A stretch of DNA of 64,000 nt from an uncultured Bacteriovoracaceae bacterium. Its GTDB lineage: Bacteria > Desulfobacterota > Desulfomonilia > UBA1062. The translations under genes were made by a program, and so were the position numbers. Under the pieces are notes generated by a model that saw only the letters and a program-made list of their open reading frames with translations, was not told the origin of the DNA and made no database searches. The stretch covers positions 61,962 to 125,961 of the forward strand of contig CAZUDI010000003.1 in assembly GCA_964618975.1 (NCBI GenBank), given 5' to 3'. Below are positions 1 through 58,339 of this stretch, piece after piece. How positions within the stretch are numbered: the stretch's first letter is position 1; each line of letters starts with the position of its first letter.

Positions 1-720
1 TACGAGACGGTCTTCCCGCTGATGATCGAGGACCAGCTCTTCGCCGCACTGAGCATCGTCTCCTCCAAGATGCTCACCACCGACGAGGAACGCAAGATCG
101 CCTATTTCCTGCAGCGGGCGGCGGAAAGGATGGAAAATGTGGCGCTCTACGAGGGGCTCTACGAAAACATCCTCTCCACCCTGAACAGTATGGCCAAGAT
201 CATCGACGCCCGCGACCCGTACACCTCCCAGCACTCCACCCGGGTCACCATGCTCGCCACTTCCCTGGCCCGGGCCCTGAAGATCTCGGTGGATGACCTG
301 GATATCCTGTCCATCGCCGCTTCATTGCATGACATCGGCAAGGTGGGCATACCCGATCACATCCTGCTCAAACCGGACCGGCTTACCGATGAGGAATTCA
401 CGGTCATCAAACGACATGCCGACATCGGTGCGGACATCCTCAATCCCATCATCCCCATGCGCAAGGAATCCCAGATCATCCGACATCACCATGAGCGCTA
501 CGATGGCAAGGGCTACCCTCTCGGTCTGGCAGGGGAGGACATCCCCCTGCTCTCACGGATTATCACCCTGGCCGATGCGTACGACGCCATGACGTCGGAC
601 CGCCCCTACCGCAAGGGCCTGGCAAAAGAGGCGGCCCTGGCCGAGATCACGCGCTGCAGGGGAACCCAGTTCGACCCCGTCATCGCCGGCATCTTCATCG
701 AAACGCTCGGCGAAGACTAG
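1..720 (+). CDS. HD-GYP domain c-di-GMP phosphodiesterase (5'-truncated by the window edge)
   Basis: Reading frame is open from base 1 (YETVFPL precedes the first Met). Protein has the HD motif 'LHDIGKVGIPDHIL' and 'HHERYDGKGYP' (the GYP signature), ending 'AYDAMTSDRPYR', all typical of HD-GYP. Confidence 0.8.
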   Translation, partial: YETVFPLMIEDQLFAALSIVSSKMLTTDEERKIAYFLQRAAERMENVALYEGLYENILSTLNSMAKIIDARDPYTSQHSTRVTMLATSLARALKISVDDLDILSIAASLHDIGKVGIPDHILLKPDRLTDEEFTVIKRHADIGADILNPIIPMRKESQIIRHHHERYDGKGYPLGLAGEDIPLLSRIITLADAYDAMTSDRPYRKGLAKEAALAEITRCRGTQFDPVIAGIFIETLGED

Positions 721-7167: not shown

Positions 7168-7466
7168 CCCCTGTCTGCCGCGAACGTCACCCGGAAAAGA
7201 ATCCGCCGCAGATGCTCCCCTGCAATCAGCCGCTCAGGGACACTAACTCGGGGCACCACTGCGGGGCACCCCTTGAAAGCCTCACGCGAAAGGGAACTGC
7301 CCCTAAGGGGACTCAAACCGGTTGATCTGCGGGTCAACTTCTGTCAGACTAACACACGGAAATCCTCTAGCATGGGGTTGAACCCCCGGCGGCACGCACC
7401 CTGGCCTCCCCATTCAGCCTTGAGCGGCGGGGAAGATGACCCATAGCAATCAAAAGGAGGCATGCA

Positions 7467-7910
7467 ATGGAATACTCCGAACTTGAACGACTCATCACGG
7501 ACACCATACCCTGGGTCAAGGACAGCGGACTGCGGGTAGATCTCATGGCCAAAAACCACATCCGTCTCACCGTTCCGCCTGAAAAGCACCTCAACCACGT
7601 GGGCATCGTCTATGCCGGGACCCACTTCATGCTCATGGAGGTCGCGGGGGCGGCCCTGTACTTCGCCACCTACGGCCTGAACAACCTTGTCCCTGTGAAC
7701 AAGCACATGGAGATCAGCTACCTCAAACCCGCCTTCGGCGACATCAGCTGCGAGCTGAGTCTGGATGAGGAGACGGCCCGCGCCATGATGGCCCCGGTCG
7801 AACAGCGCGGCCGGGGTGACTGGATCCTGGATATGGCGGTCACGGATACCTCGGGTGTTACGGTCTCAAAAGCGCGGTGCAACTACTACCTCATCCCGAC
7901 CCCGGCCTAG
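7467..7910 (+). CDS. hotdog-fold thioesterase-like protein (DUF4442/YiiD C-terminal-domain type)
   Basis: 147 aa. 'HVGIVYAGTHFMLMEVAGAALYFATYG' and 'KHMEISYLKPAFGDISCE' fit the PaaI/DUF4442 hotdog pattern. RBS AAAAGGAGG is upstream. Confidence 0.55.
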   Translation: MEYSELERLITDTIPWVKDSGLRVDLMAKNHIRLTVPPEKHLNHVGIVYAGTHFMLMEVAGAALYFATYGLNNLVPVNKHMEISYLKPAFGDISCELSLDEETARAMMAPVEQRGRGDWILDMAVTDTSGVTVSKARCNYYLIPTPA

Positions 7911-7949: not shown

Positions 7950-9041
7950 CTAGAAGATGAAGCGCCTCCAGGAGACGCTCAACACGATACCGATGCAGGC
8001 CATGTTCACCAGCATGAAGGAGCCGCCGTAACTGATGAACGGCAGGGGCACACCCACCACCGGGAAGACGCCGATGGCCATGGCGATGTTGATGAAGACA
8101 TGCAGGGTGAAGTACAAGGCGATGCCGAAACAGATCATGGCCCCGAAGCGGTCCTTGGCCTTGTTCCCGACAGAGATGATCTGGGTGATCATGATCAGGT
8201 AGAGCACGATCAGGACGAAGGAACCCACAAAGCCCCATTCCTCGGCCACCACGGAGAAGATGAAATCGGTGTGGTGTTCAGGCAGGAACTTGAGCTGGGT
8301 CTGGGTTCCGTGCAGGAAACCCTTGCCGATCAGGCCGCCGGAGCCCACGGCGATCTTGGACTGAATCGCATGGTAGCCGCTGCCCAGCGGGTCCTGGGAC
8401 GGGTTCAGAAAGGAGAGGATGCGCATGCGCTGGTAGTCCTTGAGCGAGAGCCAGCCGAACGGCAGCAGGGCCAGAACGAGGATGGCGGAGGTGACCAGCG
8501 TCGACTTCTTGATCCCCAGCAGCAGCAGCATGCTCATGGCAATGATCAGGATGATGCCGGCCGTGCCGAGGTCCGGCTCGGACAGGATCAGCAGAACCGG
8601 GACGGCGACGGCCGCCATGGGACGGATCAGCTCCCGCAGGCCGTGCTCCTGGATATGTTTGTAACGCGCCCCCCAGTGGGCCAGCCAGACAATGATGATG
8701 ACCTTGGTGAGTTCCGAGGGCTGGATCCCCAGCGGGCCGAGGGAAAGCCAGCGCCGTGCGCCCGAGATCTCGCGCCCCATACCCAGCACGACCACGAGCA
8801 GCACCACGGCCAAGACATAAAGCGGCCAGGCGAATCGGGTGAGCAGGCGATAGTCGATCACGAAACTCACGAACATCACGAGAAGGCCCAGGCCTACCCA
8901 AAGGAGTTGCTTGAAAAAGATCGCACTGTCGGTGACCCGGGTGGAGCTGTAGAGACACAACAGACCGATGGCGACGATACTCATGACCGTGGTGATCAGT
9001 CCCCAGTCGATGTTATCGATTACCTTCGAATATCTGCTCAT
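7950..9041 (-). CDS. rodA: peptidoglycan glycosyltransferase RodA (SEDS family)
   Basis: 363 aa, 10 predicted TM helices. 'YSKVIDNIDWGLI' N-terminus and 'PFISYGGSFMLVNMACIGIVLSV' C-terminus are typical of FtsW/RodA. Follows mrdA in the operon. Confidence 0.9.
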   Translation of the reverse strand: MSRYSKVIDNIDWGLITTVMSIVAIGLLCLYSSTRVTDSAIFFKQLLWVGLGLLVMFVSFVIDYRLLTRFAWPLYVLAVVLLVVVLGMGREISGARRWLSLGPLGIQPSELTKVIIIVWLAHWGARYKHIQEHGLRELIRPMAAVAVPVLLILSEPDLGTAGIILIIAMSMLLLLGIKKSTLVTSAILVLALLPFGWLSLKDYQRMRILSFLNPSQDPLGSGYHAIQSKIAVGSGGLIGKGFLHGTQTQLKFLPEHHTDFIFSVVAEEWGFVGSFVLIVLYLIMITQIISVGNKAKDRFGAMICFGIALYFTLHVFINIAMAIGVFPVVGVPLPFISYGGSFMLVNMACIGIVLSVSWRRFIF

Positions 9042-18006: not shown

Positions 18007-18481
18007 CGTCGTCCTCCCCAACATACTGCATGGAAACCTTCTTGAGCTCCCGCACACTCCAGTAGATCCGATAATCCTCGCAGGCAAGCTCGCAGGCAAG
18101 CTCATGGACGAGGTCCTCCACCTCCTGGCGGGTAGTCCCGTGGACCATGGAAAAGATCCGGTAGGCACCGAAGGCTGGCCGCTCGTAGCAGTGGGTGACT
18201 TCCGGGTGCCGGGCGATCAGCCGGCCCACACGATCGCTCTCGGCCTCGGAAACAGCCCAGACTACCATGGCGTTGGCGCGTATCCCGACCTCCTGGTGAC
18301 GGAGGATCGCCTTGAATTCGCGGATGATGCCCTGGGCCTTCAGGGTCCTGATGCGCTCCAGCAGCTCGTCGGGAGCGATGCCGAGCTCCCGGGCCCAGGC
18401 ATCGAAAGGCTGCCTCCCGGCGGGAAGATCGCCCTGCACGCGCCGCAGGATGGCCCTGTCCCTGCTGTCCAGTTGTCGCAT
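17999..18481 (-). CDS. Lrp/AsnC-fold protein resembling siroheme decarboxylase AhbA/AhbB (NirD/L/G/H family)
   Basis: 160 aa. N-terminal HTH 'LDSRDRAILRRVQGDLP', C-terminal RAM-like domain ending 'YRIYWSVRELKK'. Sits immediately upstream of hemL with a small overlap, suggesting co-transcription. Confidence 0.5.
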   Translation of the reverse strand: MRQLDSRDRAILRRVQGDLPAGRQPFDAWARELGIAPDELLERIRTLKAQGIIREFKAILRHQEVGIRANAMVVWAVSEAESDRVGRLIARHPEVTHCYERPAFGAYRIFSMVHGTTRQEVEDLVHELACELACEDYRIYWSVRELKKVSMQYVGEDDGE

Positions 18482-18586
18482 GGGTATTGATCTATCCCCA
18501 ACTTATGAGTTAATTCAAGGAAAAACAGCCCGACGCGCCCGGCGCGCCCCTCAAGGGCCACGGCCCGGGGGTCTGCCCCTGACGCT

Positions 18587-19036
18587 TCAGCGCGCCTCGG
18601 GCGCGGTCCCCTCGCAGAGGGCCAGCCAGGCCTGCTCGTCAGAGACGCGGTTGATGTGCAGACCGATTTCCATGGTCCCCGGCTCGACACGGATGATGTC
18701 GGCCCACAGGGTGAGGAGCTGGTCTTCCAGCTCGACCACCACCGCCTTGCCCACCAGTCCGCGAACCAGGGAGGGGGTGAGGCTTCCCCTGGTCTCGAAG
18801 GCCGTGCCCACCACCCGGACCATGAACCCCCGGCTGGAGATGTTGAGTGTATCCACCAGACCGTAGATCTGGCGGCTGGACTGCCGGATGCGGGCGGACA
18901 GATCTGTGAAATGCAGGCTGATGCGGATCCGCGCCGGCAGTCTGGTCTCCCGGCGCGGATAGGTCCTGCGCTCCGGATGCGATCCCCTGGCATCCTCAGG
19001 CGCCCCCACCCTTTCCCTCGGCTCCCTATCCTGCAT
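18587..19036 (-). CDS. stand-alone PilZ domain protein (c-di-GMP receptor)
   Basis: 'RRETRLPARIRIS' (the RxxxR motif) and 'DTLNISSRGFMV' (the D/NxSxxG motif). GGGAGGGG RBS is upstream. Confidence 0.7.
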   Translation of the reverse strand: MQDREPRERVGAPEDARGSHPERRTYPRRETRLPARIRISLHFTDLSARIRQSSRQIYGLVDTLNISSRGFMVRVVGTAFETRGSLTPSLVRGLVGKAVVVELEDQLLTLWADIIRVEPGTMEIGLHINRVSDEQAWLALCEGTAPEAR

Positions 19037-19060
19037 GGATCCCCTCCCGTCTGCGGTTCT

Positions 19061-19483
19061 TCATTTCCGTCTGCGCCGCCACTCCTTGGGAAAGATGCTG
19101 ATGCCCTCCTGGTGCTCGTCACACAACCTTTTCCAGGCGTGCACATCGGACACCCGTTGGATGATGACGCCGAACTCCAGCGCCCTTTGCTCCACCCGGA
19201 CGATCTCGCCCCACAGCGTAACGCCCTCCCCGTCGAACTCCACCATGATCGGGCACCCCATGAGTTTCTGGCTATCCCCCGGGGCGAAGCTCTGGGCACC
19301 GGAAACAAGCGATCCATCGATCATGAGGCCCAGTCCGCCGATGCTTATGTTCACCGTCTCCACCAGGGCGCGGATCTCCTTGACGGCGGACCTGACCTTG
19401 GAGAACTGGTCCTCGAAGAGGCTGATGCGGATCTGACCCGGCAGGCGCGTGCTGATACGGTGGAATCGTCGTCTCTCGTCCAT
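19061..19483 (-). CDS. stand-alone PilZ domain protein (paralogue)
   Basis: 'RRRFHRISTRLPGQIRIS' and 'ETVNISIGGLGL' are the same PilZ motifs. Tandem with the previous gene. Confidence 0.7.
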   Translation of the reverse strand: MDERRRFHRISTRLPGQIRISLFEDQFSKVRSAVKEIRALVETVNISIGGLGLMIDGSLVSGAQSFAPGDSQKLMGCPIMVEFDGEGVTLWGEIVRVEQRALEFGVIIQRVSDVHAWKRLCDEHQEGISIFPKEWRRRRK

Positions 19484-19536
19484 GAACGTGGCCTCTCACA
19501 GACCTCTTCGTCCAACATATCCTTTTCCTTTAGTTT

Positions 19537-20568
19537 TTATTGCTGCGGGGCGCTCTCCGGCAGGACGACCATGAATGAATCCCATGCATAAAGCCGGTCT
19601 TCCCGCCGGCGAGCCGTGACAATGATACGATTGACCTTGCGGGTCAGCGCGATGGGACCCTCGCTGCTGAGAACCCCGGTCTCGGGATCGAACACCGCCG
19701 GCAGCCGCCCCCTCTCGGAGAGGAACATCTGGACCTGTCCTGACAGGTAGAGATGGGGATTGGCGAGGGTCAGGCGAATGTGTTCCAGGGTCCCTGAGGT
19801 GAGTCTGCCGTACGCCGGCTCCCGACGGACGATCATCAGCGGCGGGCTTATCAGCTTGGCGACGAAGGTATCCATCGTGATGTCCCGGCCCACGATGGCC
19901 TGTCGGGGGACCCGGCCGGGTTCGGCCCAGCCCCCTGTGTTTCCAGGGTCCGAGGTGAGCCCGAGCGTATAGCCCAGGTGGGATACGGCCTCCAGCACAC
20001 TGCCATCGTATTCCCCGAAGGGATAGGAAAACCATCGCACCGCATGCCCCAGGCCCTGTTCCAGGATCTCCTTCGAGAGCCTCATCTCGCGCACAGCCTC
20101 GCTCTGAGAAATATTCACCAGGCGGGGGTGGGTATGCGAATGGGAGCCAACCTCCCCCTTGTGCCGCTCCATCTCGCGCAACTGATCCCAGCTGACGAAA
20201 TGCTTTTCCCCGATCGCACGGGTGAAGACAAAGACCGAGAACGGATAGTCATAGGCCTTCAACACGGGAAAGGCCTTTTCATAGACCGAGCGATATCCGT
20301 CATCGATGGTGATGACCACCCCTCGGGAAGGCATCGCCTGCCGGCCGCAGAGTATGTCTTCCAGCTCTCTCAGGCAAAGCACCCGATAGTCATGCTCTTT
20401 AAGGTAGGCCATCTGGCGGGAGAATTCGGCGCTGGAGATCGAAGTGGAGGGGGAGTCCGCCTCGTCGAACTTGTGGTACAGCAGCACGCTGACATGGGCC
20501 TCGGCCGCAGCGCCCCCCCCCAGGAAAAAGATCATTACCGCCATAAGGATCTGCCGTACGTGCTTCAT
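19537..20568 (-). CDS. secreted polysaccharide deacetylase (NodB-homology, CE4 family)
   Basis: Signal peptide, then 'VLLYHKF', 'ITIDDGYRSVYEKAFPVLKAYDYPFSVFV' and an HxxxxH-type motif typical of CE4 deacetylases. Confidence 0.75.
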   Translation of the reverse strand: MKHVRQILMAVMIFFLGGGAAAEAHVSVLLYHKFDEADSPSTSISSAEFSRQMAYLKEHDYRVLCLRELEDILCGRQAMPSRGVVITIDDGYRSVYEKAFPVLKAYDYPFSVFVFTRAIGEKHFVSWDQLREMERHKGEVGSHSHTHPRLVNISQSEAVREMRLSKEILEQGLGHAVRWFSYPFGEYDGSVLEAVSHLGYTLGLTSDPGNTGGWAEPGRVPRQAIVGRDITMDTFVAKLISPPLMIVRREPAYGRLTSGTLEHIRLTLANPHLYLSGQVQMFLSERGRLPAVFDPETGVLSSEGPIALTRKVNRIIVTARRREDRLYAWDSFMVVLPESAPQQ

Positions 20569-20633: not shown

Positions 20634-21452
20634 TCAGAAAACGGCGTCGGAGCGGGCCGGTGCAGGGCCGGGGAGCTCGAGGACACAGTCGTCATAGGCC
20701 GTGAGGTCGTTGTACCGGATGATACGCCGGAGCCTCTCCACATAGGCCGGGCCCGATTCGGAATAGGAGCTCAACGCCTGGGCCAGGACCAGGGCATCGG
20801 TTGGCTGGCCGGTTGACCCTCTGAGCTCCCGCAAGGCCGCATACGCCGGGTGTGTGTTGATGGTCCAGAGGTAGTAGTCGATGTTGGACTGCAGGTCCTT
20901 GAAGACCGAGACGCGAAAGACCCTCCCGGGGGCCTGGGCCTGCGGTACCATCCCCTCGCCCTCCGGGGTACGCAGGCCGAAGAGATTGTTGCCGTACCGC
21001 GCAAAGCGCGAACTCCCCCAGCCCGATTCGATGGCGGCCTGGGCGATGACCAGCGACACCGGCAGGGTGTCCACGCGCAAGAGCAACTCCGCCAGCATAC
21101 CTCGATATCCCTCTTCTTCCACACGATAGGTGCGGGCGAGGGCCATCAGCGTCTGCTTTTCCTTCTTTGTCAGCCACCAGGCACGGGCATCGATACGCTC
21201 CAGCATTTCGCGCTGGAAACGGACCTCGGCGTTCGACTTCAGTACCAGCGGCAGCAACACCTTAATGAACCGCTCCTTCCTGCGGCTTACGACCTGCATG
21301 GTCTCCAGATCCTCCGGCAGGCACTCGGAATACACGTAGGCCACCCGCACCGGCGCGTTAACGCGCTCCGAATCGGGAAGGAATCCCGGGAGTAGCACCC
21401 CCACGACACTCGCCAGCAGGACTCCCAGAACAATATATTCGCTCTTCTTCAA
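20634..21452 (-). CDS. glucosaminidase-domain protein (Bax / FlgJ C-terminal-type peptidoglycan hydrolase)
   Basis: N-terminal TM/signal segment and 'AQAAIESGWGSSRFARYGNNLFGL', the hallmark of PF01832 mannosyl-glycoprotein endo-beta-N-acetylglucosaminidase. Confidence 0.75.
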   Translation of the reverse strand: MKKSEYIVLGVLLASVVGVLLPGFLPDSERVNAPVRVAYVYSECLPEDLETMQVVSRRKERFIKVLLPLVLKSNAEVRFQREMLERIDARAWWLTKKEKQTLMALARTYRVEEEGYRGMLAELLLRVDTLPVSLVIAQAAIESGWGSSRFARYGNNLFGLRTPEGEGMVPQAQAPGRVFRVSVFKDLQSNIDYYLWTINTHPAYAALRELRGSTGQPTDALVLAQALSSYSESGPAYVERLRRIIRYNDLTAYDDCVLELPGPAPARSDAVF

Positions 21453-21631: not shown

Positions 21632-22789
21632 ATGAGGATCGGCATACTCACGGGCGGGGGTGATGTTCCCGGATTGAATCCCTGTATCAAGGCATTGGTC
21701 TGGCGGGCCGTGGAAGAGGGGCACGCGGTTATCGGCATCCGCCGGGGCTGGGCCGGGCTCCTCAACTACAACCTGGACCTCGGACTTCAGGAAAACGCCC
21801 GCAACGTAATCCCGCTCGACAAGGGTGCGGTGCGTACGGTAGACCGGACCGGGGGGACCTTTCTGCACACCTCGCGCACCAACCCCTCGAGCGTGAAGGC
21901 CGGGGAGGTGCCCGGCTTCCTCTCTACGCGCCGCGCGCAAGACGCCACACAGAAGGTCGACCTCACCGATCATGTACTCAAGGTGGTCGAGGCCCTGGGA
22001 ATCGATGTCCTGGTTCCCATCGGGGGGGACGACACCCAGAGCTTCGGGGAACGGCTGCACCGCGAGGGCGTGCATACAATCGCGATTCCCAAGACCATGG
22101 ACAACGACGTCTTCGGCACGGACTACTGTATTGGCTTCTCCACGGCGGTCTCGCTCAGTACGCACTACATCCAGACCCTGCGGACCACAGCGGGCTCCCA
22201 CGAACGCATCGCCGTGATCGAGCTCTTCGGCCGCAACTCGGGGGAGACCTCCCTCATGGTCGCCTACCTGGCGGCGGTGGACCGCGCCATCATCTCGGAG
22301 GTTCCCTTCGAACCCACGAAGCTCTCCGAGCTCATCATGCAGGACAAACGCTCCAATCCCAGCAACTATGCCATGCTCACCATCTCGGAGGGTGCCCGGA
22401 TCATCGGGGGCGAGTGCATCGAGACCGGCGAGCAGGATGCCTACGGCCACCGCAAGCTCGGTGGAATCGGGCAGATCACCCGTGAGCGCCTCAAAGAGAT
22501 CACCGGCCAGGAGATCCTCTACCAGCAGATAGGATACCTCATGCGCAGCGGCGCCCCGGACTCGGTGGACCTCATGGTAGGTTTCAATTTCGCCCACCTG
22601 GCGGTCGAGCTCATCAACAAGGCGGTCTTCGGGCGGATGCTCGCCATCCAGAAAGGTGTGTACACCCACATCCCCTACAGCATGATCACCGGGGGGGTGA
22701 AACGGGTGAATGTGGATGAATTCTACGATATGGACCAGTACCGCCCCAATATCCGCAGCCTCGAAGGCAAGCCTCTCTTTCTCTACTAG
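21632..22789 (+). CDS. pfk: 6-phosphofructokinase, probable pyrophosphate-dependent type
   Basis: '[16 protein letters not shown]', and 'PIGGDDTQ' plus 'PKTMDNDV' instead of GGDGS/PGTIDND. These Asp/Lys substitutions are the established PPi-PFK signature. Confidence 0.85.
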
Positions 22790-28062: not shown

Positions 28063-29823
28063 TTATTTCACCGAAAGCAATGTCTGCAACATCTCGTCGG
28101 CTATGGATATGAGCTTGGCTGAGGCCTGGTAGAGGTACTGATTCTTAAGCAGGTTGGCCATCTCCTCGTCCAAGTTCACCCCGGATACGGACTCCTTGCG
28201 GCTGAGGTACTGCCCGAGGAGCGTATCGTTGAACTGCGCGTTCATCTTGGCATTCTGGGTGTGTACCCCCACCTCGGAAACAAAGGCGCTGAAGAAGGCA
28301 TCCATGGTGGTACGCGTACCATCCATGGTGACCACCGTGTCCTGCAGGCCGAAAATAGCGCTCGCCACACTGTTGTCACCCGGGGCCACCGCGTTGTTCG
28401 AATCCAGGTACCCGGCACAGATGCGCTGCGGATCCGAAACCAGGGCGGCATTGATCCCGACGGTTTCGGAAAGGTCTCCCAGAGAACTGTCCCAGGAGAA
28501 GAAGGTGTTCACCCCCAGCACGGCCAGGGCATGGCTACTCCCCGCCGCATCCGAAGTGGGCTGGATAGCCAAGGTGTAACCGGCGTTGGCCTGAAGGGTA
28601 AAGTATCCGTCGGTACCGCCGCTCAGGGCGGCGCTGATCTCCCCGCCGCCGGCGGCTGCCTCGGCGTTGATCTCGTCTCTGAGGGCCTGCACCGTGCTCC
28701 CCGCCGGGTCGATAGTATAGGTGCTGGCCACCTGTCCGTCGGCATCAAAGACCACGATATCGAACGACCCGCTGGCGTTAAAGTGGCTGCCGAAGGTGAG
28801 AGCACCGATATCATCCGCGAGCCCGACATCCACCGTGCCGGACAAGGAGCTCACCGCCTGGAGCCCGACCCCTTCGGCGTGCAGGGAGTTGACCTGCCAG
28901 ACAAGTTCCTCGGTGAGCGTGTTGAGGGAATCGAGGTAGTCTCCGATGCGGGTGTCGCGCACCTCCACCCAGCCGGCGATCTTGCCGCCCTCGAGACGGT
29001 GGGTGATATCCACCTGCCGGCCGCTCTGGTCGTTCCAGAAGACATCGGTATATCCCGTGGTGGCGTTGTTACCCACGCTCAGCTCGTAGCTCTCGTTCCC
29101 CAGCACCAGGGGGGTGCCGCCCAGGATATAGACCATGACCTGGCCGCTTTGCTCCTCCTCGTAGTAATTGATGTCCATGTACTCGGAGAGCTCTTCCAGA
29201 AGCAGGTCCCGGCGATCCCGGAGGTCGTTGGCGTTGATCATGCCGTCGATCTCGACACTGGAGATGGTGCCGTTCAGCTCGGCGATCTGGGAAGTGAGGG
29301 AATTGACGTACTCCACCGAACCATCGATGTTGCGGTCAAGGTTGCGCTGATACGATCGCAGATTGTAGTCTATATCCTGTATGGCCTGCACCAGGTTGTC
29401 GCTCTGGGCGATCAGGGCCTCGCGCTCGGGGATACCGTCGGGATTGTTGCTCAGGTCGCTCCAGGCATTCCAGAACTCGCCCATGAGATAATTGAGGCCG
29501 TAGCCGTCGCTTTCGTTGAAGATCACCTCGATCTCCTCCATGGCATCACTCTGGGCGCTCCAGTAATAGTACTCCGAGTTCTTGATATTGAGCTGTTTGT
29601 TGATGAACTCGTCATAGGCCCTGGTCACCTCGGTGGCCCTCACGCCGGTCCCGATCTGACCCGGTCCCATCGTAATGGGATAGTTGGGCTCCACCAGCAG
29701 GGACTGTTTGGAATAACCCTCGGTATTGGCATTGGCGATATTGTGTGAGGTGACCTCGATGGCCAGCTGTGAAGAATACAGGGACCACCGTGCGATGTCG
29801 AGCGCTCCGCCGATTCCCGGCAT
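28063..29823 (-). CDS. flgK: flagellar hook-associated protein 1 FlgK
   Basis: 586 aa. N-terminus 'IARWSLYSSQLAIEVTSHNIANANTEGYSKQ' (flagellar rod/hook N-terminal consensus), C-terminus 'LLKNQYLYQASAKLISIADEMLQTLL' (FlgK C-terminal helix). Confidence 0.85.
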   Translation of the reverse strand: MPGIGGALDIARWSLYSSQLAIEVTSHNIANANTEGYSKQSLLVEPNYPITMGPGQIGTGVRATEVTRAYDEFINKQLNIKNSEYYYWSAQSDAMEEIEVIFNESDGYGLNYLMGEFWNAWSDLSNNPDGIPEREALIAQSDNLVQAIQDIDYNLRSYQRNLDRNIDGSVEYVNSLTSQIAELNGTISSVEIDGMINANDLRDRRDLLLEELSEYMDINYYEEEQSGQVMVYILGGTPLVLGNESYELSVGNNATTGYTDVFWNDQSGRQVDITHRLEGGKIAGWVEVRDTRIGDYLDSLNTLTEELVWQVNSLHAEGVGLQAVSSLSGTVDVGLADDIGALTFGSHFNASGSFDIVVFDADGQVASTYTIDPAGSTVQALRDEINAEAAAGGGEISAALSGGTDGYFTLQANAGYTLAIQPTSDAAGSSHALAVLGVNTFFSWDSSLGDLSETVGINAALVSDPQRICAGYLDSNNAVAPGDNSVASAIFGLQDTVVTMDGTRTTMDAFFSAFVSEVGVHTQNAKMNAQFNDTLLGQYLSRKESVSGVNLDEEMANLLKNQYLYQASAKLISIADEMLQTLLSVK

Positions 29824-29824
29824 A

Positions 29825-30253
29825 TCAGACCCCCTTCCGCACGAGTGGCAATGCCAACCTGGCCTTCTTCCCCGAACGGTCGTAGCCGGTCTGCAGCCCG
29901 GCGAAGAAGGGCTCGAGTTGGGCGCGCACCTCGCTGAGACGCTTGGTGACCAGTTCCCTGGCCGACTCGTTCAGGCCCCTCACGCGCGTCCACGACCCCG
30001 CGAGATCCTGCTGCAGACCCCTGATCCGCTGCGCCTGGCCGCGGGAGGGTTCTCCGGCCGGGTCTGACATGCCCTCGCGGTTTTCGGCAATGGTGTGCAT
30101 CAGCCGTTGCTTTTCGGGAAGCGATTCCTCCAGTTCCTCCACATCACCGGCTAGAATATAACCCAGTTCCTCTTCGAGGCACGCTCCGAGGCGGGCGACA
30201 AGCTCCTTTTCCCTCTCAAGACAGGCTTCCATCTCCTGATACGTCATCGCCAT
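29825..30253 (-). CDS. flgN: FlgN-family flagellar export chaperone (putative)
   Basis: About 142 aa, helical, acidic. Sits directly upstream of flgK, the usual flgN position. Start at MAMTYQEME (30253). Confidence 0.5.
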   Translation of the reverse strand: MAMTYQEMEACLEREKELVARLGACLEEELGYILAGDVEELEESLPEKQRLMHTIAENREGMSDPAGEPSRGQAQRIRGLQQDLAGSWTRVRGLNESARELVTKRLSEVRAQLEPFFAGLQTGYDRSGKKARLALPLVRKGV

Positions 30254-30294
30254 TCTCCCCCCTGACGGGTATGCCGGCACCCTGGTCCCGTACA

Positions 30295-30627
30295 TCACCG
30301 CCCCTCTTTCTTATCGGTCAAGGGGACCGATGTCTGAGTGGGCGTCTCCGCTGAGATTCCCTGGATGCGGGCGATCCTCTCGTAGAGCACCTGGGCGATA
30401 CCGATGCCCTCTCCGGCCGTGGCCCCCCTGGCCATGGCCATATAGAGCAGGTCCTTGGAAATCTCCCCCGAGAGTCCCTCGCCCATGAAACCCTCACCGA
30501 CCCCGGACCCCGTGGCCTTGAGCAGCTGGTGGACGAAGATGGACTCGAATTCACGGCAGGCCTCGCGCAGCGCCCGCTCGGGATGCTGGGCCTTCATATG
30601 GTAGAGCGCCGCCACATTGCCGATCAT
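30295..30627 (-). CDS. rod-binding protein (FlgJ N-terminal-domain homologue lacking a glucosaminidase domain)
   Basis: 'ALREACREFESIFVHQLLKAT' matches the FlgJ N-terminal / rod-binding signature (PF10135). Start ATG 30627 forms an ATGA overlap with the flgI stop. About 110 aa. Confidence 0.6.
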   Translation of the reverse strand: MIGNVAALYHMKAQHPERALREACREFESIFVHQLLKATGSGVGEGFMGEGLSGEISKDLLYMAMARGATAGEGIGIAQVLYERIARIQGISAETPTQTSVPLTDKKEGR

Positions 30628-31712
30628 ATGACCTCCAGATCGGCGTACAGCGCGTCCGAACGCTTGATGCACTGCAGGATCACCACCAGGTCCCGCGGGG
30701 TCACCCCGATGGCATTGAGGGCCCCCACCAGGTCCCCGATGGTTGTGCCGTCCGGCAGCACCACGAGTCTGCGCCCCCCCTCCTCCACCGTCACCCCGCT
30801 CCCGGGGACCACGGTGGTCACCCCCTGGGAGAAGGGCTGCGGCTGAGAGACGCCAGGTTCTTCCGTGATCTTGATGCTCAGGTTGCCGTGGGCGATAGCC
30901 ACGCTGGAGATACGCACATTGTCGCCCATCACCACGGTGCCGGTACGCTCGTTCACCACCACCTTGGCCCGCGAATCGGGGTTCACATCCACCCCCTCGA
31001 TCATGGCCACGAAGTCGACAATCCGCTCATGATACGCCTCTGGCACCTGCACACGGATCGTGGAAAGGTCCTCGGCATGCGCCACGCCCTGGCCAAGCCG
31101 CTTGTTGAGCGAGCCCACGAGCCGGTGCGCCGTGGTGAAGTCCGGGATGTCCATCACGAGCCGCAGCTCATTCCCCAGGGTGAACTCCGTGGAACGTTCC
31201 ACTACCGCCCCGCGGGGAATCATTCCCACCGTGGGGAAATTCTTGGTGACGCCGCTGCCGCTCTCACCCGCAACGGCAAAGCCGCCCACGGAGATGGCGC
31301 CCTGCCCCAGGGCATACACCCGCCCGTCGGGACCGTAGAGCGGGGCCGCAATCAGCGTACCGCCCGCCAGGGACGTGGCATCCCCCAGCGAGGAGATGGT
31401 GCAGTCGAGGTATTGTCCGCTGCGGGCAAAGGGAGGCAGGATCGCCGTCACCATGACCGCGGCCACGTTCTTGACCTTGAGCGCGTTCGCATCCACGGTG
31501 ATACCCATGGTCCGCAGGAGATTGGCCAGGGAATAGACGGTGAACTGCGCGCCGGTCTTGTCGCCGGTACCGTTGAGCCCCACTACCAGCCCGTACCCGG
31601 CAAGGCGGTTCTCCCGCACGCCCTGGATCTCCACCAGGTCCTTGACCCGTACGCCGTAGGCCACGGGGGCCAAAAGCAGTATTCCCAATATGAGCAGCAG
31701 TATCTTTTTCAT
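30624..31712 (-). CDS. flgI: flagellar P-ring protein FlgI
   Basis: Signal peptide, then 'VRVKDLVEIQGVRENRLAGYGLVVGLNGTGDK', the conserved FlgI N-terminus. Confidence 0.95.
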   Translation of the reverse strand: MKKILLLILGILLLAPVAYGVRVKDLVEIQGVRENRLAGYGLVVGLNGTGDKTGAQFTVYSLANLLRTMGITVDANALKVKNVAAVMVTAILPPFARSGQYLDCTISSLGDATSLAGGTLIAAPLYGPDGRVYALGQGAISVGGFAVAGESGSGVTKNFPTVGMIPRGAVVERSTEFTLGNELRLVMDIPDFTTAHRLVGSLNKRLGQGVAHAEDLSTIRVQVPEAYHERIVDFVAMIEGVDVNPDSRAKVVVNERTGTVVMGDNVRISSVAIAHGNLSIKITEEPGVSQPQPFSQGVTTVVPGSGVTVEEGGRRLVVLPDGTTIGDLVGALNAIGVTPRDLVVILQCIKRSDALYADLEVI

Positions 31713-31720
31713 CCTTCACC

Positions 31721-32413
31721 TCAGAACGGCCAGAGCTTGTCCATGGCCCGCGACACGATACCCCTTCTCTGCTGGTCGCCGATGATACCGTTCCCATAAT
31801 AGTCAATCCTGAGATCGGCGATGGAGGTCGATGCAATGGTGTTGTTCGAGCTGACATCATCGGGCCGGATGATTCCCGAAAGCAGGATATACTGCACCTC
31901 CGAATTCACACGGATCTGTTTCTTACCCTCGATCATCAGGTTGTTTGACGGCAACACCCTGACCACGCGGGCCGAGATTGTGGCCTGGATGCTACCCTTG
32001 CGCGAGGTGTCCCCGGTGCCCTCAAACTCGCTAGAGGAAGAGGCCCCGAGAGCAGGGGTCAGGGCATAACCCTTGACGGAGGCCCTGTCGAGTGGCAGAC
32101 CCAGGAGATTGGTGATCGAGCTGTCCGCCTTATTCGTCCGCTCCGCCTTGGTTTCGGCCTCCTTGCTGGCCGACGAGTTCTCCGCGATCTGCACCACCAC
32201 GAGATCACCCACGCGGCGTGCCTTGGATTCAGCATAGATGTCCGAAAATTTGGCGCCCGGCGACCACAGGGATCCGGGTATGGCGACGCTTTCCACGCGC
32301 TCCTCCACCGGTGGCGCCAGGGTATCCACCTCCAGGCGCGGCGGCCCCTCGTGCGCACAGCCCCCCATAATCAGGGCCAGCATCACCAACATGATGCACA
32401 TGTGTCTCTGCAT
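31721..32413 (-). CDS. flgH: flagellar L-ring lipoprotein FlgH
   Basis: Lipobox 'IMGGC'; 'GSLW...GDLVVVQIAENSSASKEA' and a C-terminal 'GNGIIGDQQRRG' match FlgH. Confidence 0.9.
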   Translation of the reverse strand: MQRHMCIMLVMLALIMGGCAHEGPPRLEVDTLAPPVEERVESVAIPGSLWSPGAKFSDIYAESKARRVGDLVVVQIAENSSASKEAETKAERTNKADSSITNLLGLPLDRASVKGYALTPALGASSSSEFEGTGDTSRKGSIQATISARVVRVLPSNNLMIEGKKQIRVNSEVQYILLSGIIRPDDVSSNNTIASTSIADLRIDYYGNGIIGDQQRRGIVSRAMDKLWPF

Positions 32414-32422
32414 ATCTTCCTC

Positions 32423-33379
32423 CTAGAAAACTACCCGTACGCAGGAAGGAGCAATAATGGTGCCAAACACCTGCTTACCGGAGGTCACATTCCTCACCGG
32501 TATGCGTTGACTGAGGCCGCCGTCCCTGAGTGCCACCCCCTTGTCCCGCACCACCAGCCTGTCGCGGGAGGCCTCGATAATCACCGTCTCTCCCCGGCAC
32601 ACCACGGGCCGGGGCTCGACATTGGCCTGCAGGATGGGCGCCTCGGCGCGGATGGCCGTCTTGGCACGCATGCCCGTACAGGACGCCTTGTCGGTCATGA
32701 GGCTCTCGAGGTCGCAGACCTTCAGGGGCCGCATGACCAGGGCCGCCTCTGTGATCATCTCCCCGCGCCGGATGGGGGCACGCGCCACAGGGACCTGGGT
32801 CTCCAGCGATACCCGGGCAGAGATGCGCACACGGGTGGATGATGGTCCCTCCCCGAAGCTCAGGATCATGCTCACCGGACCCAGAAAATCCTCGCGGGGG
32901 GAAATTTTTGCCTGCGGACCCTGTCGCTCATTGCCCCACACCCTCACACTGAGCGGGGCCCTGATGTCTTCAATAACGATCCGCCCCCTGCCCGCATAGG
33001 GCTGTTCACGCATCAGCGCGCGGGTAAAGATCGTCTCCAGTTGCTCACGCACGATCTCCGTATACAACGGCGCAACCAGCACCTCGCTGGCACCTCTCAC
33101 CTGCAGGGGAAGGCTCACCTGGCGGGCAATCCTCTCCCTGATCCAGGCTGCCGATACGCTACTCCCCGCTGGGGACACGGGGGTGCGCATGAGACGTAGC
33201 GCGCTCAGGCGCTCGGCGTCATGGCCCTCGATCCGGGCCAGGTCCCCGAGCGTCACAACCGAATGAGGAATCTGAACGCGCTCTTTGAGCACCACGGTGA
33301 TGCCTGACGAGGCCAGAACAGGCCCTCCCAGCAACAGCACACTAAAAACCAAGATCAGACCGCGGCCGCTGATCTTCAT
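32423..33379 (-). CDS. flgA: flagellar basal-body P-ring formation chaperone FlgA
   Basis: Signal peptide, with a SAF/FlgA-type C-terminal domain ('GETVIIEASRDRLVVRDKGVALRDGGLSQRIPVRNVTSGKQVFGTI'). Sits upstream of flgH/flgI. Confidence 0.8.
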   Translation of the reverse strand: MKISGRGLILVFSVLLLGGPVLASSGITVVLKERVQIPHSVVTLGDLARIEGHDAERLSALRLMRTPVSPAGSSVSAAWIRERIARQVSLPLQVRGASEVLVAPLYTEIVREQLETIFTRALMREQPYAGRGRIVIEDIRAPLSVRVWGNERQGPQAKISPREDFLGPVSMILSFGEGPSSTRVRISARVSLETQVPVARAPIRRGEMITEAALVMRPLKVCDLESLMTDKASCTGMRAKTAIRAEAPILQANVEPRPVVCRGETVIIEASRDRLVVRDKGVALRDGGLSQRIPVRNVTSGKQVFGTIIAPSCVRVVF

Positions 33380-34158
33380 GACCGCAGGTTATTGGCCACC
33401 TGCAGCATGGAATCCGCCGTCTTGATGGCCTTGGAATTCAGCTCGTAGGCGCGCTGGCCGGCGATCATATTGATCATCTCCTCCACGGCGTCCACATTGG
33501 ACATCTCCAGATATCCCTGAGCGATGGTGCCCATATTCTCTGTTCCGGCCTCTCCCTGAATGGGATCGCCGGAGGCCGGGGTGGGAATATAGGCGTTGCG
33601 GCCGATGGATTTCAGCCCCGCCGGGTTGGTGAAGGTGTACAGCGAGATCTCACCGGTCGCCAGGATCTCGTCGCCCGCCGACATGCAGGTGAGGTTGCCG
33701 TCCTGATCGATATTGATGATCGCGGTGTCCGCCGGCACCGCGAAGTCCGGCTGGAGCCGGTCACCGCGTGAGTTTACGATATAGCCGTCTGAGTCAATCT
33801 TGAAGGCCCCATCGCGGGTGTAGAGCTCATCACCATCCGAAAGCAGCAGGAAGAACCCGTTGCCCTCAATGGCCAGATCCAGTTGGTTCTTGGTCTCCAT
33901 ATAGTCGCCCTGGGTAAAGATCTTCTGGACCGCCACCGGCCGGGTGCCCATGCCCACCTCGATACCCACCGGCACGGTGCCGCCCTCGGCGGTGGGGCTG
34001 CCCTTTTCGCCATAGGCTTCATAGAACAGGTCTTCGAACTCGGTGCGGCTCTTCTTGAACCCCGTCGTACTGACGTTGGCCAGATTGTTGGCCATCACAT
34101 CGATCATCATCTGCTGGGCGCCCATGCCGGACGCCGCGGTCCACATCGCTCTAATCAT
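33376..34158 (-). CDS. flgG: flagellar basal-body distal rod protein FlgG
   Basis: 260 aa. 'MIRAMWTAASGMGAQQMMIDVMANNLANVSTTGFKK' and C-terminus 'YLEMSNVDAVEEMINMIAGQRAYELNSKAIKTADSML' are canonical. Confidence 0.9.
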   Translation of the reverse strand: MIRAMWTAASGMGAQQMMIDVMANNLANVSTTGFKKSRTEFEDLFYEAYGEKGSPTAEGGTVPVGIEVGMGTRPVAVQKIFTQGDYMETKNQLDLAIEGNGFFLLLSDGDELYTRDGAFKIDSDGYIVNSRGDRLQPDFAVPADTAIINIDQDGNLTCMSAGDEILATGEISLYTFTNPAGLKSIGRNAYIPTPASGDPIQGEAGTENMGTIAQGYLEMSNVDAVEEMINMIAGQRAYELNSKAIKTADSMLQVANNLRS

Positions 34159-34181
34159 GATCCATCCTCCCTCTGTTGCCC

Positions 34182-34919
34182 TTAAGCCAGCACTCCCACA
34201 TTGCGGATGGAGAGTGAGTACGTGTCTGAAAATGACTTGATCACCTTCTGGAAGGCCTCATACGCCCGCTGGGTGGTGATCAGCCCCACCATCTCCCGGA
34301 TGGGCTCCACATTGGACAGCTCGAGGCTCCCCTGCCGCACGGACAGCGCCTCCACCGGCGCGGGCACGAAACCCTCCTGCACGGCGAACATCCCATCGCC
34401 GCCCCGAATGAGGGCCTCCGGCGGGATGTCCACCACCCGCAGCACATCCACGACCCTCCCGTCGAGGACCACCGTGCCGTCGGTCTCAACGCTCACCGTG
34501 CCCCCGCCCAGGGGCAGATCCCCGCCCTCGCCCTGGACCGGGTCCCCGTGCGCATTCACGAGCACACCCTCCATGGATAGCTGGAAGGCCCCCGCACGCG
34601 TATAGCGCTCGCCGTCGAGGGTGTTTACCACAAAGAATCCCTCCCCCGTCACCGCCAGATCGAGGGGGTTAGCTGTCTCCCTCAATGGACCCGGGGTCGT
34701 ATCAATGAAGGGGCTCTCGGCGAGCACATCCACCGGTACCCGCTGGTATTGCCCGGAGGCAAGCGGGGTGGTGTCCAGCAGACGGATGTACTGCTCAAAC
34801 GCGAGGGCGTCCTTCTTGAAACCCGAGGTCCCCGCATTGGCCAGATTATGGGAGACGAGGGCCAGATTCTCCTCCATTGCCCTGGCTCCGGCAGCCGCCG
34901 TATAGATACCCTGATCCAT
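34182..34919 (-). CDS. flgF: flagellar basal-body rod protein FlgF (or second FlgG-type rod protein)
   Basis: Start at MDQGIYTAAAGARAMEENLALVSHNLANAGTSGFKK (ATG 34919) after a GGAGGA RBS. C-terminus 'LELSNVEPIREMVGLITTQRAYEAFQKVI' is the rod-protein consensus. Confidence 0.85.
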   Translation of the reverse strand: MDQGIYTAAAGARAMEENLALVSHNLANAGTSGFKKDALAFEQYIRLLDTTPLASGQYQRVPVDVLAESPFIDTTPGPLRETANPLDLAVTGEGFFVVNTLDGERYTRAGAFQLSMEGVLVNAHGDPVQGEGGDLPLGGGTVSVETDGTVVLDGRVVDVLRVVDIPPEALIRGGDGMFAVQEGFVPAPVEALSVRQGSLELSNVEPIREMVGLITTQRAYEAFQKVIKSFSDTYSLSIRNVGVLA

Positions 34920-34943
34920 GGTCGATCCTCCTGAGGCCCTCTG

Positions 34944-34959
34944 AGCAATAAGGGTGCCA
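34944..34959 (-). promoter_or_regulatory. sigma54 (-24/-12) promoter TGGCAC-N5-TTGCT upstream of flgF
   Basis: On the minus strand: TGGCAC-CCTTA-TTGCT, an exact match to the RpoN consensus TGGCAC-N5-TTGCW. It ends about 25 nt upstream of ATG 34919. Lying inside the longer annotated ORF, it supports the shorter start. Confidence 0.6.
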
Positions 34960-35157
34960 GCTACGGCAGAACCTCTTAAAGCCAGGCCCCGACACCGACA
35001 CAGCGGCAAATATTGCCCCTGGCCCGGCAGACGGTGGCCGGTCCCCCTGTCAGCGGGACCCCACAAGCGCCCGGTACGAATCTTGTGGCGGTCGACAGGC
35101 AGACCCTTTCGAACCGCAGGCAGCGGCCGGGGGCAGATCCCGGATGTATGGGGCTCT

Positions 35158-55967: not shown

Positions 55968-57317
55968 ATGTCGCAGGCCAAGAGACTCGCCAACCGCAAT
56001 ATCGGTCGTGCCCGGCACTCCCTGCCCTATCTCCCCGTTGAGGCGCAGGAACTGATCGCTATCATCCCCTGCCTGCTTGCGCTCGGAGATGCGCCCTGCG
56101 GGGTGTACGGCCACCCCGTGTGCACCCCCTCCCAGTTCGATCTGCTCATGCGGCACCTGGGATGCAAGCCCGACCTTCCCGTCGGACGCCTGCCGGACAG
56201 AATCTGTCTTGAGAGCCTCATGGCCATTCCGCGCCCCTCTCTTACGGGCCCCTTCTCCCTCGGTCTGACGCTCATTGCCATTCCGCGTCCGGATATCCAT
56301 CTTGCGGAGGTCCACCGCCAGATGGAGCAGGTCGGATCGTTTTTACGCCACAGGGGAATCACAACCACCACCCTGGTCCAGACGCAGTTTCCGGAGTTCC
56401 TGATCAACGAGATCATGCGCTTAGGTATCGTGTTGGGCGGCAAACACCCGGTCACCAGCAGAGAGGAACTCACCGCGGAGGCGATCCATATCGGCGAGCT
56501 GCCCTCCGCGCTTAACGACCCCACCCTCGTCCTTCACGCGGACAGGAACCCCTTCCAGGACTATCTGAACCGGGAGCTCGCCGCCCGCGTGAGCCGCTCT
56601 GCCTATCCCTGTCCCCTGAGCATCCCCGGGGCCAATCCCTTCATCCTGCCCTACCTGAACATGCTCACCGAATCCGAGGAACGTGCCGACCACGACCGCC
56701 TGACCAAGATGCGCACGAGCCTGTTCCACCTCTTCGGGGGCTTCGGACCCACACGCGGGGTGGAGACCGTCCGGGGGACCTCCGTGCCGGACAGAACCAG
56801 CCTGGCCCATCTCAGTGCCGGGGAACGCCTGCGACTGAGAAAATGGCTCGTGCCCCTCGAGGATGACGAGCTGCCGCTCTTCTCCTGGCCGCCCCTCTCG
56901 TCCGGGGCCCTGGACGAGGTATCCCTCACCTGCCGCAGTGGCCTGTGGTCCCTCCAGGAGGCGGGAGATTTCGCCCACCGCTACTCCTGGATGGTGCTCG
57001 CCTGGGGGGCCCTGGCCGGGCTGATCGGCATAGAGACCCGCATCCGACACGCCGCCTCCCACAATCTGAAGCCGCAGGCCACGCAATACCTCATGGACAT
57101 GCTCGCGGCCTTGGAGGATGGAGCCACGCTCATCGTCACCCCCGATCCGCTCCAGGGTTCTATCCGTGTGAGCTCCGGACGCTTCTTCACCTCGAACAAA
57201 CCCTTTGCCCTGCTGGAGAACGGCATCAAATTCAGTCTCGAGTTGCACGAACCGGTCAAGAAGAAGGCCCTGATTGACGATAGGGATCTGGAGATCACAG
57301 CCAGGACAAAAATATGA
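55968..57317 (+). CDS. hypothetical protein (449 aa), no confidently recognised domain
   Basis: Continuous ORF with even codon usage, translationally coupled (ATGA) to the downstream pseudo-receiver gene. There is a weak, unverified resemblance of the first ~200 aa to the N-terminal region of class I adenylate cyclases. Confidence 0.5.
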   Translation: MSQAKRLANRNIGRARHSLPYLPVEAQELIAIIPCLLALGDAPCGVYGHPVCTPSQFDLLMRHLGCKPDLPVGRLPDRICLESLMAIPRPSLTGPFSLGLTLIAIPRPDIHLAEVHRQMEQVGSFLRHRGITTTTLVQTQFPEFLINEIMRLGIVLGGKHPVTSREELTAEAIHIGELPSALNDPTLVLHADRNPFQDYLNRELAARVSRSAYPCPLSIPGANPFILPYLNMLTESEERADHDRLTKMRTSLFHLFGGFGPTRGVETVRGTSVPDRTSLAHLSAGERLRLRKWLVPLEDDELPLFSWPPLSSGALDEVSLTCRSGLWSLQEAGDFAHRYSWMVLAWGALAGLIGIETRIRHAASHNLKPQATQYLMDMLAALEDGATLIVTPDPLQGSIRVSSGRFFTSNKPFALLENGIKFSLELHEPVKKKALIDDRDLEITARTKI

Positions 57318-58339
57318 CCATCGTTACGGACATCACCATTCTCATCGTCGGCCCGGACAATATCTTCCGGCGATCGATGGCCAACATGCTCACGACGATC
57401 GGATTCAGCAACATCCACGAGGTGCATGACGGAACCACGGCCTGGGAGGTGTTGCGCCGGATTCAGCCCCGCATCGTCATCACCCAGTGGGACATGCCGG
57501 AGATGAACGGTATGGCCCTCCTGAAGCTGATCCGCAGGGACAACGAATACGGTGACACCCCGCTCATTCTGTGGACCAAAGAGATCGACAAAACCGATGT
57601 CGTTAAGGCCGGCGAAACGGGGGTGAACTCCATCATCGTGGATCCGGTCGGCCTCGAGAGCCTCGAGTCCAAGATGCATGCGATCCTCGATTTTGAGATG
57701 AGTCCTCAGACCAAGCAGGCCAAAAACATCATGGCCAGGGGCGATTTCTATCTCAAAGAAAACCGCCTGGAGGAGGCGCTTAGAGAATACGAGCACGTGC
57801 TGGACATCCTCGAATCGGCCGAGGTGTACTACAATATCGGCTACATCAAGACGGCCAAGGGTGAGTACGACGAGGCCCTGGCCGCCTTCCGCAAGGCCAC
57901 CCAGCTGAATCAGATGTTCGCCAAGGCCTACAAGGCCATGGCGGATGTCTACCTCAGAATGGACAACAAGCAAATGGCCGAACAATACCTGCAGATGGCC
58001 GGCGAGATCTTCCTGGAACGCGAGATGCATGAGAGCGCCGAGAGCATCTTCAACGAGATCCTGGCAATCAATCCGGACACCATCAACGTCTACAACAGCC
58101 TGGGCATCATCTACCGCCGTCAGCACCGCTTCCAGGATGCCCTCATCCAGTACCAGAAGGCCGTCAAGATCAGCCCCACGGACGAGAACATCTACTTCAA
58201 CATGGGACGCGTCTACCTCGAGCTGAACAATCCGGACATGGCCAAGAAATGCTTCATCAAGGCCGTCAAGATCAATCCCAATTTCGATATCGCCCAGGGA
58301 ATGCTCACCGCCATCCAGACTTCGGAAAAGGTGGACTGA
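57314..58339 (+). CDS. CheY-homologous pseudo-receiver domain fused to TPR repeats
   Basis: The receiver aligns residue-by-residue with CheY ('GFSNIHEVHDGTTAWEVL', 'IVITQWDMPEMNGMALLKLIRRD', 'TPLILWTKE...SIIVDPV'), but the phospho-acceptor Asp is Gln (ITQW vs ISDW), the DD pair is PD, and the conserved Lys is Asp (VDPV vs VKPF). The C-terminal ~200 aa are TPR repeats ('AEVYYNIGYIKTAKGEYDEALAAFRKA', 'NIYFNMGRVYLELNNPDMAKKCFIKAVKINP'). Confidence 0.7.
   Translation: MTIVTDITILIVGPDNIFRRSMANMLTTIGFSNIHEVHDGTTAWEVLRRIQPRIVITQWDMPEMNGMALLKLIRRDNEYGDTPLILWTKEIDKTDVVKAGETGVNSIIVDPVGLESLESKMHAILDFEMSPQTKQAKNIMARGDFYLKENRLEEALREYEHVLDILESAEVYYNIGYIKTAKGEYDEALAAFRKATQLNQMFAKAYKAMADVYLRMDNKQMAEQYLQMAGEIFLEREMHESAESIFNEILAINPDTINVYNSLGIIYRRQHRFQDALIQYQKAVKISPTDENIYFNMGRVYLELNNPDMAKKCFIKAVKINPNFDIAQGMLTAIQTSEKVD

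Follow-up and report, generated by a model that had tools for sequence, protein, structure and literature searches.

The stretch of DNA analysed here (the window) comprises 64,000 nucleotides of contig CAZUDI010000003.1, assigned to an uncultured Bacteriovoracaceae bacterium, and carries on its minus strand two adjacent genes for small PilZ proteins, PilZ-A and PilZ-B, candidate receptors of cyclic diguanylate (c-di-GMP). The pair lies between a CE4 polysaccharide deacetylase gene and ahbB, in a position that an initial annotation had read as a sign of c-di-GMP control over the cell envelope. Our analysis instead points to a lineage-specific insertion of two probably functional c-di-GMP-binding proteins into an otherwise conserved gene block. 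The features at the locus are as follows.

18490-18518, minus strand: conserved block TTGAAT-N17-ATAGAT, ending 8 nucleotides before the ahbB ATG
18522-18548, minus strand: terminator-like GC-rich hairpin with a T run (GGCGCGCCGGGCGCGTC + GGGCTGTTTT), 39 nucleotides past the PilZ-B stop codon
18587-19036, minus strand: PilZ-B, paralogue of PilZ-A (149 amino acids)
19061-19483, minus strand: PilZ-A, stand-alone canonical PilZ protein (140 amino acids)
19537-20568, minus strand: CE4 polysaccharide deacetylase with a PgaB/IcaB-like catalytic domain (Pfam Polysacc_deac_1, E = 1.2e-28)
20634-21452, minus strand: Bax-type glucosaminidase (Pfam Glucosaminidase, E = 2.2e-15)

The two PilZ genes are spaced 24 nucleotides apart, each preceded by a purine-rich, Shine-Dalgarno-like sequence, and their GC content at third codon positions (0.83 for PilZ-A, 0.85 for PilZ-B) is in line with that of other window genes; independent gene callers also annotated both products, on three metagenome contigs. 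Their products share 49/121 identities (40%, BLASTP E = 6e-29). Every canonical contact residue is kept in both proteins, including the hydrophobic position (h) of the [D/N]hSxxG motif. The RxxxR motif reads R5-R-F-H-R9 in PilZ-A and R24-T-Y-P-R28 in PilZ-B, in each case with a further arginine just before it (R4 and R23, giving RRxxxR), and [D/N]hSxxG, at the end of strand 2, reads N45-I-S47-I-G-G50 in PilZ-A and N-I-S-S-R-G in PilZ-B. The C-terminus of PilZ-A consists of a helix bearing VSDxxxWxxLC and then a basic tail, EGISIFPKEWRRRRK (ISIFP...RRRRK), while PilZ-B carries VSDEQAWLALC, is extended by 20 amino acids at its N-terminus and has no basic tail. No signal peptide was recognized on reading either protein sequence, and both proteins look cytoplasmic. 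The two genes also have in common a 26-nucleotide stretch (18915-18940 and 19419-19444) with 88% nucleotide identity, far above the similarity of the rest of the pair; it encodes the LPxxIRISL first strand and could reflect strong constraint or local gene conversion.

PilZ (PF07238, curated gathering threshold 22.5 bits) was the sole Pfam match of either protein and spanned the whole domain, beginning at residue 3 of PilZ-A and at residue 23 of PilZ-B, the latter match having an E-value of 0.016 and covering profile positions 2-92 of 102. Neither protein had a Pfam match to the PilZN/YcgR domain even at E ≤ 10, and no NCBIfam model matched PilZ-A or PilZ-B; by these comparisons both are stand-alone PilZ proteins from which other domains are absent. 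The tPilZ family (PF16823) was likewise unmatched among PilZ-A, PilZ-B and the subfamily members described below. Proteins of the tPilZ type form tetramers and carry a two-helix insert of about 60 amino acids with an interlocking motif, whereas the structural model of PilZ-A has a single short helix (residues 68-74) between strands. Sequence searches of the PDB returned nothing significant (E ≥ 0.09), the top matches nonetheless being PilZ proteins aligned at the motifs; the weak profile matches were to PP4397 and the PilZ domain of BcsA, also aligned at the motifs.

A canonical PilZ domain consists of a beta-barrel and a C-terminal helix, bearing the motifs RxxxR and [D/N]hSxxG, h being hydrophobic (10.1101/814665). 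The AlphaFold model of PilZ-A comprises a six-stranded antiparallel beta-barrel followed by a C-terminal alpha-helix and, as a prediction, shows a canonical PilZ fold; it was obtained in a rerun with an alignment of 31 family sequences, a run on a two-sequence alignment having been unusable (predicted local distance difference test score 47.5). The structural similarity is that of a generic PilZ barrel, as strong to BcsA as to PA0012, with the Alg44 PilZ domain also matched, and identity to solved PilZ structures is about 12-19%.

Relatives of the pair are scarce. An exhaustive HMMER scan with a profile of PilZ-A and PilZ-B retrieved 33 cluster representatives at E ≤ 1e-3 among 1.84 billion, and word-indexed homologue searches with PilZ-A, with the two-protein profile or with the 31-sequence profile recovered hardly anything except their own queries. 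In the family alignment of 31 of these sequences (mean column identity 29%), the near-invariant columns are R5, R9, S47 and G50, the four ligand-contact residues, together with W117 and nothing else; the arginine columns of RxxxR and the S and G columns of [D/N]hSxxG are each conserved in at least 90% of the sequences. The signature of this subfamily is (L/I)T(I/L)WG-x-(V/I)(V/I)RV, with VSDxxxWxxLC after it in the C-terminal helix. Nineteen of the 31 members match Pfam PilZ at E ≤ 0.01 and no other family (best E = 3.1e-8), and the relatives P0016 (28.3 bits), L026:7684-8097 (25.3 bits) and the short-type protein of contig L010 (25.0 bits) lie above the gathering threshold. The initial description of the pair as tandem paralogues, each a stand-alone PilZ protein whose binding motifs are intact, is therefore borne out by the sequences, the conservation within the family and the predicted fold.

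Within the subfamily, PilZ-A clusters with a long-type clade that has a conserved tail, GISIFPD...RR(K/R)RR; in a neighbour-joining tree PilZ-B is sister to PilZ-A plus this clade and is not orthologous to the short type. Searches with four long-type sequences found 14 loci, in metagenome-assembled genomes (MAGs) labelled deltaproteobacteria, Desulfomonilia or Syntrophaceae, with two labelled Bacteriovoracaceae. A divergent short-type partner stands beside the long-type gene at 11 of the 14, and likewise on contigs L024 and L025; among contigs L004-L016, for example, the divergent long/short pair of L010 occupies 7427-7774 (minus strand) and 7974-8426 (plus strand). Gene pairing is a recurring trait of the subfamily, which is rare and found mainly in deltaproteobacteria-type (Desulfobacterota) MAGs. 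In the deltaproteobacteria-type or Desulfomonilia-labelled MAGs, the long/short pair is flanked by an RNase HI gene and by dinB.

Four more members of the subfamily were found on contigs of the metagenome series MUDA16-1, the series from which the window also comes (L018:8001-8429, L026:1741-2127, L026:7684-8097 and L114:5001-5405). Of these, P0027 adjoins priA and is degenerate in its second motif (NVGRSS), P0007 is encoded upstream of htpG, L026:7684-8097 is a short-type member, and P0016 is the fourth. The contigs that bear them have a GC content of 0.59-0.63 and a tetranucleotide correlation to the window of 0.96-0.97, equal to the within-window baseline, which is consistent with, and not proof of, six subfamily copies having arisen by lineage-specific expansion in one organism.

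The placement of the pair directly downstream of a CE4 deacetylase and a Bax-like glucosaminidase was confirmed for both annotations. The CE4 protein matched the N-terminal part of the NCBIfam PgaB model at 99.7 bits, under its cut-off, and the glucosaminidase matched NCBIfam 'protein bax' at 113.7 bits (E = 8.5e-33), compared with only 20 bits for FlgJ. Read from their sequences, CE4 begins with a Sec-type signal-peptide-like sequence (MKHVRQILMAVMIFFLGGGAAAEA) and Bax with an N-terminal membrane anchor. For synteny, metagenome contigs were scanned with CE4, and the resulting 80 loci were searched with the window neighbours and the family hidden Markov model. Contigs L033-L036 (three distinct, L035 and L036 giving identical results) share with the window the block atpE-atpB-atpI / Bax-CE4-AhbB-HemL / Lon-NTP transferase, in which ahbB comes straight after CE4, at gaps of 49-94 bp and without a PilZ gene. 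Neither a subfamily member nor a convincing open reading frame (ORF) with PilZ motifs was present at any of the 80 CE4 loci and, conversely, no CE4 or Bax gene was found near subfamily members at about 20 distinct loci. The neighbours of the subfamily elsewhere encode REC, Sel1, RNase HI, DinB, an alpha/beta hydrolase, a GldG-like ABC system, PriA and HtpG, as well as ABC transporters, a cation-efflux protein, a dehydrogenase and a PAS kinase, and bear no relation to the envelope or to flagella. Bax and CE4 themselves adjoin one another at nine metagenome loci (L033-L040 and L075, GC 0.41-0.70), always without PilZ; they are a conserved two-gene module independent of PilZ, and probably a peptidoglycan-modifying pair.

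When the window was aligned with the gap between CE4 and ahbB in these relatives, the block TTGAAT-N17-ATAGAT proved to be kept in L033-L035 despite the absence of the PilZ genes, and in this alignment it marks the downstream edge of a PilZ insertion of about 1 kb. The block could be the promoter of ahbB-hemL, whose transcript would then have no leader or almost none, or it could be a regulatory site; it was not listed by a promoter pattern scan. Regulation of the downstream ahbB-hemL genes by the PilZ pair was considered and rejected, given that these genes have their own conserved upstream block and adjoin CE4 in the PilZ-less relatives. On the other side of the pair, Bax, CE4, PilZ-A and PilZ-B follow each other on one strand at gaps of 65, 53 and 24 nucleotides, and the pattern scan gave no sigma-70-like match in the 53-nucleotide gap between CE4 and PilZ-A. 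The hairpin past PilZ-B is probably the end of the transcription unit that contains the PilZ genes; it is a consensus match only, such sites numbering three in the region against 2.4 expected, and is no more stable than shuffled sequence (its fold z-score being unremarkable). As to signs of a mobile element, neither direct nor inverted repeats flank the pair in a repeat analysis of 18300-19700, the repeats present being derived from the paralogy of the two genes. A phosphofructokinase gene (21632-22789, plus strand) lies between Bax and atpI in the window and is missing there in L033-L037, and is a second lineage-specific difference in the conserved block.

Further features of the window that bear on the function of the pair are the following.

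22-720, plus strand: HD-GYP-type HD_5 protein, about 18 kb from the PilZ pair
28063-35066: flagellar cluster, in which FlgK, FlgN and a rod-binding-only FlgJ were confirmed and other names are provisional
63082-63888, minus strand: HDOD protein, about 44 kb from the PilZ pair

The HD-GYP and HDOD proteins that the initial annotation had brought into the picture are both present; at such distances they say nothing specific about the PilZ pair. The flagellar cluster is 9 kb from the pair, with phosphofructokinase, atp, HU and TetR genes between. Its FlgJ-like protein (30295-30672, minus strand, 125 amino acids) has the rod-binding domain alone, without a glucosaminidase domain, and the gene for a rod-associated peptidoglycan hydrolase would thus lie elsewhere; speculatively, the Bax-type enzyme at a distance of 9 kb could fill that role. 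No riboswitch, for c-di-GMP or any other ligand, was detected in the window with Rfam, which gave one tRNA only. A 449-amino-acid ORF (55968-57317, plus strand) has good coding statistics and no Pfam match at E ≤ 0.001, and is situated just upstream of a REC-TPR response regulator (57314-58339).

Taken together, we consider it probable that PilZ-A and PilZ-B are functional c-di-GMP-binding stand-alone adaptors and that their adjacency to Bax-CE4 is incidental. Binding of c-di-GMP is most likely for both proteins, judging by their retained contact residues. The residue before RxxxR governs whether a PilZ domain binds c-di-GMP as a dimer or a monomer (10.1101/2020.02.11.943704) and, because an arginine precedes the motif in both proteins, they probably bind the intercalated dimer. 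The ligand would clamp the N-terminal arm, which is flexible and carries RRxxxR, against the beta-barrel beside [D/N]hSxxG and, in doing so, would reshape a surface that includes the VSDxxxWxxLC helix and, in PilZ-A, the ISIFP...RRRRK tail. This reshaped surface may then engage a putative protein partner, the PilZ protein acting in trans as an adaptor. By analogy with MapZ, we infer that the C-terminal helix and the basic tail of PilZ-A are the best candidate for the partner surface, the diversity of C-terminal motifs among PilZ proteins reflecting a diversity of partners (10.1101/2020.02.11.943704). The pair itself was probably inserted, or arose by duplication, in this lineage between CE4 and ahbB of the conserved block; tandem pilZ duplication is a known evolutionary path (10.1101/814665). 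As a lineage-specific insertion, the pair would owe its position beside Bax-CE4 to accident, with at most co-expression and no dedicated regulatory coupling.

Several observations weigh against this interpretation. The Pfam scores of PilZ-A (20.9 bits) and PilZ-B (16.0 bits) are below the gathering threshold, the fold model covers PilZ-A and not PilZ-B, and the RxxxR-NxSxxG loop, long in PilZ-A (35 residues), was modelled with lower confidence. We nevertheless regard the PilZ assignment as confirmed despite the low scores, because family conservation and structure agree. The CE4 proteins of L033-L036 are only 50-54% identical to that of the window, and closer relatives that carry the PilZ pair might exist. 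From the gene arrangement, co-transcription of the pair with Bax-CE4 is plausible, and a functional link gained after the insertion is possible.

The four co-oriented genes with short gaps, the lack of a sigma-70-like match between CE4 and PilZ-A and the occurrence of a hairpin only past PilZ-B would all suit a Bax-CE4-PilZ-PilZ operon through which c-di-GMP controls envelope remodelling by deacetylation and cleavage of peptidoglycan or exopolysaccharide. The PgaB/IcaB-like CE4 domain fits as well, the poly-N-acetylglucosamine and cellulose systems being known c-di-GMP targets. We nonetheless find this explanation unlikely, and the control of envelope remodelling that the initial annotation had deduced from adjacency fails on synteny, which is missing in L033-L036, where CE4 abuts ahbB, at all nine loci with Bax-CE4, across the 80 CE4 loci and around the roughly 20 member loci. 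The Bax-CE4-PilZ order is thus not kept in relatives, an outcome which that annotation had itself named as speaking against its proposal. Moreover, CE4 and Bax are exported or membrane-anchored while the PilZ proteins, with no signal peptide, appear cytoplasmic, so direct contact would be impossible and regulation would need a transmembrane intermediary; nor was a polysaccharide synthase (PgaC, BcsA) noticed in the window, itself only partly annotated. Control of the flagellar motor or of chemotaxis, in the manner of MapZ, DgrA, MotL, FilZ or the YcgR-type brakes, was the other function originally suggested, and appears to us slightly more doubtful still. It found no specific support: the PilZN/YcgR N-terminal domain is absent, the structural likeness is to generic PilZ barrels, BcsA and PA0012 alike, the flagellar cluster is set apart behind unrelated operons, and no flagellar or chemotaxis genes adjoin any subfamily member examined.

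Other explanations concern the proteins rather than their surroundings. One or both could have lost nucleotide binding and serve as pure protein adaptors, like the PilZ proteins sensu stricto of Xanthomonas and Pseudomonas; their sub-threshold Pfam scores would agree with this, and P0027, a paralogue in the same genome, indicates by its degenerate NVGRSS that the family tolerates motif loss. Both window proteins, however, retain all canonical contact residues, which occupy the family's most conserved columns, and we hold this possibility to be quite improbable. Least probable, in our judgement, is a heteromeric receptor pair with a target that may be related to nucleic acids or the chromosome, as for CdbS of Myxococcus, contacted via the poly-arginine tail of PilZ-A. 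In its favour are the recurrence of adjacent pairs (tandem in the window, divergent long/short at 11 of 14 loci and on L024 and L025), the conservation of the ISIFPD...RR(K/R)RR tail in the long type and the presence of RNase HI, DinB, PriA and HtpG genes among subfamily neighbours, and a stand-alone PilZ protein acting on chromosome organisation has a precedent, at least as outlined in PMC10313047. Against it, PilZ-B and the short-type partner are not orthologous, and the neighbours in the Desulfomonilia-like loci are convergent and hence not co-transcribed, the loci representing one inherited arrangement. A broader version, in which the proteins belong to an unrecognised, Desulfobacterota-restricted PilZ subfamily of two-gene receptor pairs, possibly heteromers, with a dedicated target perhaps associated with nucleic acids or chaperones and a six-fold expansion in this organism, is likewise unlikely, on a par with envelope control.

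For proteins that are probably c-di-GMP-binding adaptors placed beside Bax-CE4 by chance, annotation through guilt by association would mislead, since the envelope-enzyme adjacency results from a lineage-specific insertion. The distinctive C-terminal signature of this rare, paired and locally expanded subfamily could in turn guide a search for partners. Nothing in the current understanding of c-di-GMP signalling is challenged by the PilZ pair. No c-di-GMP receptors are more abundant than the single-domain PilZ proteins, and for most of these the partner is not known (10.1101/2020.02.11.943704); the window pair is of this ordinary kind, a modestly unusual subfamily of stand-alone receptors that current Pfam thresholds miss.

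Compared with the stand-alone PilZ adaptors MapZ/PA4608, PA0012, DgrA/DgrB, MotL, FilZ and CdbS, the window proteins belong to a very rare subfamily, share only about 12-19% identity with the solved structures and add the VSDxxxWxxLC helix, a longer loop between the motifs and, in PilZ-A, the ISIFP...RRRRK tail. They differ from the flagellar brakes YcgR, MotI and PlzA, which have a PilZN-PilZ architecture, in lacking both a PilZN/xPilZ domain and a flagellar gene context. In BcsA and Alg44, the PilZ domain is fused to a membrane synthase or co-polymerase, whereas here it is free-standing, has no adjacent synthase and is neighboured by periplasmic modifying enzymes. A parallel exists to the PilZ-PilZ proteins such as Bll4394 and SMc00999, which likewise represent a tandem duplication of canonical pilZ, with the motifs and the C-terminal helix preserved in each copy (10.1101/814665). 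Unlike in those fused proteins, the window copies are separate genes, 24 nucleotides apart and with their own ribosome-binding sites, that have diverged to 40% identity.
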